Source: Eubacteriales Family XIII. Incertae Sedis bacterium (GTDB lineage Bacteria > Bacillota > Clostridia > Peptostreptococcales > Anaerovoracaceae). From it: DNA of 64,000 bases. The stretch covers positions 13,588 through 77,587 of the forward strand of contig JAISQM010000009.1 in the NCBI GenBank assembly GCA_031274195.1, given 5' to 3'. Position 1 is the stretch's first letter, and every line of letters starts with the position of its first letter. Shown piece by piece: positions 37,452 through 38,017 of this stretch. The notes beneath the pieces are model-generated. The model worked only from the letters and a program-made list of their open reading frames with translations, did not search any database and was not told where the DNA came from. Both the position numbers and the translations under genes were made by a program.

Positions 37452-37814
37452 ATGCAGACTGTATATGATTTTGAGTTGCCTAAGGGATATTTAGACGAGA
37501 AGGGCGAGATACACAAGCGCGGCAAGATGCGCCTCGCGACAGCCGGCGACGAGATCGGAGCGCTGCGCGATCCGCGGGTCTTATCAAATCCGTCATACCT
37601 CTCCATCGTGGTACTTTCCTCCGTGGTAACGGAGCTTGGAGAATTGCCGGCGGTCGTAGCGAGCGTGATCGAAAATCTTTACACGGCGGATCTCGCTTTT
37701 TTGCAGGATATGTATCAGCGCATCAATACGATTGATACGCCGACGATGCAGGCGACCTGTCCGGAATGCGGACATATATTTGATGTACCCATAAATTTTA
37801 CACGAGAGGGATAA
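37452..37814 (+). CDS. Conserved CIS small protein with a C-terminal zinc-ribbon-like CPECGH motif (possible assembly chaperone)
   Basis: 120 aa, sited between the two tube genes. ...ATCPECGHIFDVPINF lies at the C-terminus, and the slippery heptamer A_AAT_TTT sits 13 nt before the stop. Confidence 0.5.
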   Translation: MQTVYDFELPKGYLDEKGEIHKRGKMRLATAGDEIGALRDPRVLSNPSYLSIVVLSSVVTELGELPAVVASVIENLYTADLAFLQDMYQRINTIDTPTMQATCPECGHIFDVPINFTREG

Positions 37815-37846
37815 CGCTCTATCCCGAGCGAGAGCTGTATCGAGAA

Positions 37847-38017
37847 ATGTCTTTCATCTCATACTACTTTCACTGGGGGAGTGACGAGGTATTGGCCCTT
37901 GACCATACTGCCCGCAGGCGTTGGTGTGAGGAAATCTCATCGATCAACGCGGATCTCAGTCCCTCCGATGCAAAGGGCAAGAAAGAAAAGAGCATCACCG
38001 AAATGAAGCTGCCGTAG
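37847..38017 (+). CDS. Small 56-aa protein (DUF6760-like by recollection), absent from the ORF track
   Basis: My own translation gives MSFISYYFHWGSDEVLALDHTARRRWCEEISSINADLSPSDAKGKKEKSITEMKLP. The frame stays open upstream to 37784 and is the -1 frame of the preceding gene. Confidence 0.5.
   Translation: MSFISYYFHWGSDEVLALDHTARRRWCEEISSINADLSPSDAKGKKEKSITEMKLP

Follow-up and report, generated by a model that had tools for sequence, protein, structure and literature searches.

A probable programmed −1 frameshift between a tail assembly chaperone and DUF6760 in a clostridial contractile injection system

We found that two small overlapping open reading frames (ORFs) in an extracellular contractile injection system (eCIS) locus of a gut bacterium of Eubacteriales family XIII, one coding for a tail assembly chaperone (TAC) and the other for a domain of the family DUF6760, are very probably joined by a programmed −1 ribosomal frameshift of the lambda G/GT type, which would give a predicted TAC-DUF6760 fusion of 188 amino acids (aa). 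The locus lies in a stretch of 64,000 nucleotides (nt) of contig JAISQM010000009.1, hereafter called the window, and the genome is a fragmented metagenome-assembled genome (MAG) that is 83.7% complete. The basis of this reading is the relation of the two frames, an in-phase slippery site, the conservation of its nucleotides, coding selection in a stretch that has no start codon, the homology and fold of the chaperone, and the existence of natural fusions of both parts in a single ORF. From this evidence we infer that ribosomes slip at the heptamer and that those which do so would be a minority.

The TAC gene ends in ...CCC ATA AAT TTT ACA CGA GAG GGA TAA, in which the codons ATA AAT TTT carry the heptamer A_AAT_TTT in zero-frame phase, leaving 12 nt between the heptamer and the stop codon TAA at 37812-37814. 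On its 5′ side the −1 frame is bounded by a TGA (37781-37783), after which it stays open up to its own stop at 38015-38017, with an ORF overlap of 28 nt in the window, and its first ATG, GTG or TTG is an ATG at 37847 that is preceded by a weak purine tract. A sequence-only reading of the window had proposed the frameshift from a heptamer at 37793-37799, a −1 frame open from 37784 to 38017 and a first start at ATG 37847; we confirmed all of these coordinates, and the junction that it predicted for the fusion, ...VPINF/YTRGITLYPE..., is indeed what the sequence reads.

Both the frame relation and the heptamer are conserved in related Clostridia. For this comparison we assembled 88 loci, namely the window, seven loci from families elsewhere in the phylum and 80 species loci drawn from Lachnospiraceae, Oscillospiraceae and Eubacteriales family XIII, with chaperones that are 49-79% identical to the chaperone of the window. 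The DUF6760 frame is −1 relative to the TAC gene in all 88 loci. An in-phase AAATTTT is found in 84 of them and a canonical in-phase heptamer of any kind in 86; T_TTT_TTA is present in two loci, one of which has G_GGT_TTT as well, and an in-phase run of six G in two. The conservation in homologues of the heptamer and of the open −1 overlap, two features that the sequence-only reading had relied on, is thus borne out, and the frame relation extends to the environmental loci described below. In one Lachnospiraceae MAG (L083, JAVBUL010000200.1, near 1842-1960) the AAATTTT is retained, the −1 frame has only 40 codons before its stop and the Y-P motif is gone; decay of the copy or faulty assembly seems the likely cause.

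Nucleotide constraint was analysed in 80 in-register loci over 530 nt spanning both genes. No invariant run of nucleotides in either gene is longer than TAAATTTTA, which has a length of 9 nt; the runner-up reaches 5 nt. The three codons of the heptamer account for three of only six invariant third positions, against a mean third-position entropy of 1.39 bits. The residue before Asn varies between Leu, Ile and Val, yet its codon is always NTA: it is CTA in 35 loci, and CTA makes up 1.2% of the Leu codons elsewhere in the same genes. Furthermore, AAC never replaces AAT and TTC never replaces TTT at the heptamer, and the mean probability of the codon choice found there is 0.024 per locus. The sites that are fixed (NTA, AAT, TTT) are synonymous ones. 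These patterns indicate that selection acts on the nucleotides of the slip site and not on the protein.

The 33 nt from the TAC stop to the usual ATG show the signature of a translated frame. The codon-position entropies of this stretch in the −1 frame are 0.51/0.34/1.30, equal to those in the bodies of both genes, and the synonymous share of codon differences is 0.53 in the −1 frame versus 0.09 and 0.05 in the others. By both measures this start-less stretch varies as coding sequence in the −1 frame only. In 62 of the 88 Clostridia loci the first canonical start is reached only 3′ of a conserved Y-P motif. Pfam DUF6760 (PF20546, gathering cut-off 27 bits) matches the 56-aa ORF with 47.7 bits and over profile positions 15-53 only, and the extended −1 frame with 58.5 bits and over positions 2-53, the match beginning 12 residues before the ATG. 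The sequence-only reading had suggested checking whether conservation among homologues of the 56-aa protein reaches back beyond their ATG; it does, as shown both by the gain in the DUF6760 match and by the coding periodicity of the 33 nt. A survey of DUF6760 N-termini points the same way: in the best 150 of 325 representatives from a library of 1.84 billion proteins, the annotated N-termini are scattered over profile positions 1, 4, 5, 7, 9, 10, 13, 15, 19, 23 or 34, a scatter of the kind that gene finders yield where a frame has no true start. The DUF6760 frame would lack a proper start because it is reached by frameshifting. A non-canonical start at the Ile codon that overlaps the TAC stop was rejected, given that this codon varies (ATA, CTA, TTA, TTG, GTA, ATG) and that a GGAGGG tract abuts it without a spacer.

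The upstream 120-aa protein is a tail assembly chaperone homologue. It matches phrog_508, annotated as tail assembly chaperone, with an E value of 5.5e-8, and its homologues are labelled “phage tail assembly protein” by NCBI and, in some cases, “phage FluMu protein gp41” by JGI. The chaperone and the DUF6760 part were modelled separately. The AlphaFold model of the chaperone, built from 51 homologues, has a mean predicted local distance difference test score (pLDDT) of 84.6, and its top fold match in the PDB is the HK97 tail assembly chaperone 2ob9 (probability 0.97, template modelling (TM) score 0.49-0.55), followed by YqbN 3klu (probability 0.92, TM score 0.52), with all remaining matches at a probability of 0.13 or lower. 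Members of the chaperone family match Gp41_Mu and Phage_TAC_7 weakly and below the curated cut-offs (best E values 0.026 and 0.049). A search of solved structures with the chaperone sequence profile gave spurious zinc-finger matches and nothing else, and NCBIfam holds no model for the chaperone or for the DUF6760 part. The extension modelled alone forms a small three-helix domain with a pLDDT of 67. Near the C-terminus of the chaperone and just 5′ of the slip site there is an invariant C-x-x-C (CPECG, window positions 37758-37769; alignments A1, A3 and A4). This segment gives many weak zinc-ribbon matches and is missing from the natural single-ORF fusions.

Beyond the Clostridia, the same pair of families was examined in environmental loci, for which a distant chaperone alignment led to 80 metagenome loci; with three loci added by look-up and one incomplete locus removed, the set holds 82. 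DUF6760 is in the −1 frame of the TAC gene in 81 of these 82 loci. An in-phase heptamer, mostly C_CCG_GGG or G_GGG_GGN, is present in 48, an in-phase G_GGG alone in 30, and neither in four. Runs of at least five G occur in 68 of the 82 loci compared with 3.4% of control windows. No canonical start exists at or before the Y-P motif in 53 loci, and in five there is none anywhere in the frame. The environmental loci as a set have an RNAalifold consensus hairpin, CUACCCCCUCG...CGAGGAGGUAG. This form of the chaperone-DUF6760 pair, with G run and hairpin, shares with the window the two families, the −1 relation and the position in the locus, and differs from it in that the window's clade has a canonical heptamer, which sits 9 nt upstream of the G-run position of its relatives, and no conserved hairpin. 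The comparison indicates that the window's clade lost the G run and the hairpin and that the signal was replaced by a canonical heptamer with frame relation and position kept. A signal that is swapped while frame and position are kept argues for selection for frameshifting as such.

In loci L094 to L173 of the environmental collection, the Pro of the Y-P motif is encoded by CCC in 64 of 79 distinct loci, whereas the rest of these genes uses CCG most often for Pro, and GAGGAGGTAG is nearly invariant after the chaperone stop; both the preference for CCC and the near-invariance of GAGGAGGTAG fit the consensus hairpin of the G-run class. The window itself has a possible weak hairpin downstream of the heptamer, GGGATA-N6-TATCCC (Table 1). 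It was rejected as a conserved stimulator, as 82.7% of the alignment cells pair, shuffled controls do the same, and only one compensatory change was found.

Natural fusions of the chaperone and DUF6760 in a single ORF are found in three proteins, P0188 (167 aa), P0228 (150 aa) and P0273 (167 aa), in which hhalign recognizes the chaperone over the first ~97 residues with 99.5-99.7% and DUF6760 with 98.5-98.9% probability. P0273 comes from a 9.3-Mb contig of the Planctomycete Ca. Uabimicrobium sp. HlEnr_7, where it lies exactly between the two gp19 tube genes of an eCIS whose genes follow the same order as those of the window. Because this single ORF occupies the same position in an eCIS, its existence supports the view that the fused polypeptide would be a functional form. 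The real fusions are found only among distant relatives. The sole match among close relatives, P0122, was rejected as a chaperone fusion since its N-terminal part is unrelated (precomputed Pfam PF01467). It is a 158-aa protein on a 908-bp ENA contig whose DUF6760 part starts at ...LYPEAEMYKEMSF, and it is probably an assembly chimera.

A further protein touches on the chaperone family. In a Gallionella sp. MAG (L093, JBAQOC010000030.1, positions 2501-3235) a 244-aa protein has an N-terminal part with 48% identity over 60% of P0188, and its gene adjoins eCIS_core (PF13699) and DUF4280 genes, away from any sheath or tube gene. A cargo or adaptor protein may here have taken over a chaperone-like domain.

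Accommodating these findings, we propose that the TAC gene and the DUF6760 frame form one recoded gene. Most ribosomes would end at the TAA and release the 120-aa chaperone, and a minority would slip one base back at A_AAT_TTT, with the tRNAs on AAT in the P site and on TTT in the A site slipping simultaneously and re-pairing on AAA and TTT, and would go on to 38017 to produce the 188-aa protein. By analogy with lambda gpG/gpGT, the tape-measure-like protein of 808 aa encoded further downstream would be coated by the chaperone part, and DUF6760 would recruit tube subunits in assembly.

Several observations weigh against this proposal. Related loci share ancestry, so that the locus counts overstate independence. 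RNAalifold found no consensus structure in the window's clade, where the mean minimum free energy z-score is −0.64, and since no stimulatory structure is conserved there the efficiency of the slip may be low. A few distant loci are without a clear shifty site, with L091, L126 and L135 reading CCG GAG GGA TAG. AAATTTT is not rare in the window, with 17 copies versus 12.2 expected. Finally, at least 90% of the 80 close relatives keep the Met of ATG 37847, and a separate 56-aa product may be made as well.

This last point is also what speaks for two separate genes, with DUF6760 started at ATG 37847 by weak initiation or re-initiation and no fusion made. Gene finders and NCBI annotate the chaperone and DUF6760 as two genes, and in about 10 loci an ATG or TTG overlaps the TAC stop (ATGA type). 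However, such an arrangement leaves unexplained why NTA-AAT-TTT is invariant at synonymous sites, and equally the coding periodicity and the profile homology 5′ of the ATG. More distant loci have Ala or Val in place of this Met, the purine tract in front of the ATG is weak, five environmental loci have no canonical start at all in the frame, and single-ORF fusions of the two parts exist. We therefore regard two separate genes without a fusion as improbable, and initiation at ATG 37847 may take place in addition to frameshifting. A fusion could also be made by another route, namely a slip of the P-site tRNA on G_GGA while the stop codon TAA occupies the A site (37808-37814). P-site slippage is known to be stimulated by a stop codon in the A site, the environmental loci and some Clostridia relatives have a shifty G run at exactly the G_GGA position, and GAGGGATAA is well conserved in the close clade. 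The third base of the Gly codon nevertheless varies, being A in 45 and another base in 31 of 77 distinct loci, which would spoil G_GGA, and a slip there gives no account of the invariant A_AAT_TTT; a slip on G_GGA as the source of the fusion is accordingly very improbable. Further alternatives are that the overlap arose by chance, that the gene has decayed or that the assembly contains a sequencing error. The commonness of AAATTTT in the window and the fragmented state of the MAG would allow for this, and the chance of an in-phase X_XXY_YYZ within the 28-nt overlap is about 3-4% by our own arithmetic. Taken in the window alone the heptamer is within chance, and it is only by comparing the sequences of related loci that it goes far beyond chance. 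With the same arrangement in about 170 loci from different assemblies, chance or error is already refuted by comparison and its probability is negligible. Transcriptional slippage was rejected as well, because A3T4 is too short a homopolymer for it.

One of the distant loci without a clear shifty site, L091 (positions 2881-5009, from a Pyrinomonadaceae MAG), has no in-phase shifty heptamer and carries a GTG directly 3′ of the stop, and the gene after its DUF6760 is a second sheath gene and not a tube gene. L126 and L135 have the CCGGAGGGATAG junction in common with L091, and this lineage may use coupling or a P-site slip on C_CCG.

A −1 frameshift in the tail assembly genes is reportedly conserved among long-tailed double-stranded DNA phages (Levin, Hendrix and Casjens 1993; Xu, Hendrix and Duda 2004). 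The pair described here resembles lambda gpG/gpGT in having two overlapping ORFs near the tube genes and the tape-measure-like gene, a downstream ORF in the −1 frame without a reliable start, and an in-phase slippery heptamer a few codons before the stop. As in the phage G/GT systems generally, the slip site differs between lineages with the frame relation kept, and the upstream protein has the TAC fold. The differences from lambda are that the pair in the window belongs to a contractile injection system, which has a cap protein and an AAA ATPase, and not to a virus, that the heptamer is A_AAT_TTT and not G_GGA_AAG, and that the added domain is DUF6760, which is unrelated in sequence to the T part. 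The G/GT-like position and geometry that had been read from the sequence hold in large part: the upstream gene is a chaperone homologue and the −1 overlap is there, but a second tube-like gene stands between the chaperone and the tape-measure-like gene in the window, so that the correspondence with lambda is close and not exact.

Other known systems share part of this arrangement. P2 gpE/gpE+E′ and Mu gp41 (Phage_TAC_7, Gp41_Mu) likewise belong to contractile tails and have the chaperone after the sheath and tube genes; unlike these, the eCIS chaperone carries the C-terminal CxxC segment, and its Pfam matches to them stay below the cut-off. YqbN/XkdN of the Bacillus subtilis skin and PBSX elements (PDB 3klu) is similarly a tail chaperone, encoded by a phage-tail-like element that has been domesticated in Firmicutes, but the sequence identity is ~10%, and PBSX, unlike an eCIS, is a defective prophage and has kept its capsid.

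The mechanism itself is not new, as it is classic in phages, and what is added here is its extension to bacterial injection systems. A tblastn search of 50,697 phage records with the fusion gave no match. In our literature search we found no paper naming DUF6760, and no relevant paper linking eCIS or other contractile injection systems (CIS) with a frameshift or a tail assembly chaperone. A 2025 census of CIS lists no such gene (PMC12210884), and length determination and assembly of eCIS are called poorly understood in a 2026 preprint on eCIS engineering (10.64898/2026.05.27.728243). We further hypothesize, giving this idea an even chance of being right, that assembly in a large class of CIS, spread over many phyla, generally requires the chaperone-DUF6760 frameshift and that this requirement has so far gone undescribed, that DUF6760 is the functional counterpart of the lambda T domain, and that lineages tune the ratio of long to short product by swapping the signal. 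Under this hypothesis, the signal comes in the versions of a G run with hairpin, a canonical heptamer without hairpin as in the window, and full fusion as in Ca. Uabimicrobium, and the particle yield or length of heterologous or engineered eCIS depends on an intact recoding signal. The frameshift reading of the window would itself give DUF6760 a concrete role, as the domain that frameshifting adds to the tail chaperone of eCIS. At hundreds of loci the annotation shows two genes, or lacks the second, where a single recoded gene is the likelier reading, and codon optimisation of eCIS that are moved or redesigned for protein delivery could destroy the recoding signal.

Table 1. Positions of the chaperone-DUF6760 pair and of the surrounding injection system genes in the window
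Feature	Position	Strand	Remark
Pvc16_N cap gene	33532-34110		family match
Sheath gene	35062-36768		family match
gp19-type tube gene	36823-37377		family match; 5′ of the gene pair
TAC gene, zero frame	37452..37814	+	short product, 120 aa; lambda gpG analogue
Slippery heptamer A_AAT_TTT	37793..37799	+	X_XXY_YYZ phase, read from sequence
−1 extension after the predicted slip	37799..38017	+	72 codons (YTRGITLYPERELYREMSF...) and stop; gives the predicted 188-aa fusion, lambda gpGT analogue
Possible weak hairpin GGGATA-N6-TATCCC	37808..37825	+	8 nt 3′ of the heptamer
56-aa ORF, expected gene-finder call	37847..38017	+	truncated DUF6760, starts at an internal Met
Second tube-like gene	38050-38556		between the gene pair and the 808-aa gene
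808-aa gene, tape-measure position	38584..41010	+	presumed chaperone client; context, not part of the signal
Two CIS_tube genes	after the 808-aa gene		family match
Phage_base_V spike gene, gp25, Baseplate_J and Tail_P2_I genes	same locus		family matches
AAA ATPase gene	51566-53890		family match

The setting of the pair is that of an injection system. In a family scan, the window was found to contain the eCIS/CIS gene set of sheath, tube, spike, gp25, baseplate J, Pvc16-type cap and AAA ATPase, and no capsid or terminase family was present among the window proteins scanned. The chaperone gene comes after the sheath and gp19 tube genes. The 808-aa gene has no Pfam family match; it is flanked by the second tube-like gene on its 5′ side and by the two CIS_tube genes on its 3′ side, and from this position alone it is presumed to be the tape measure.
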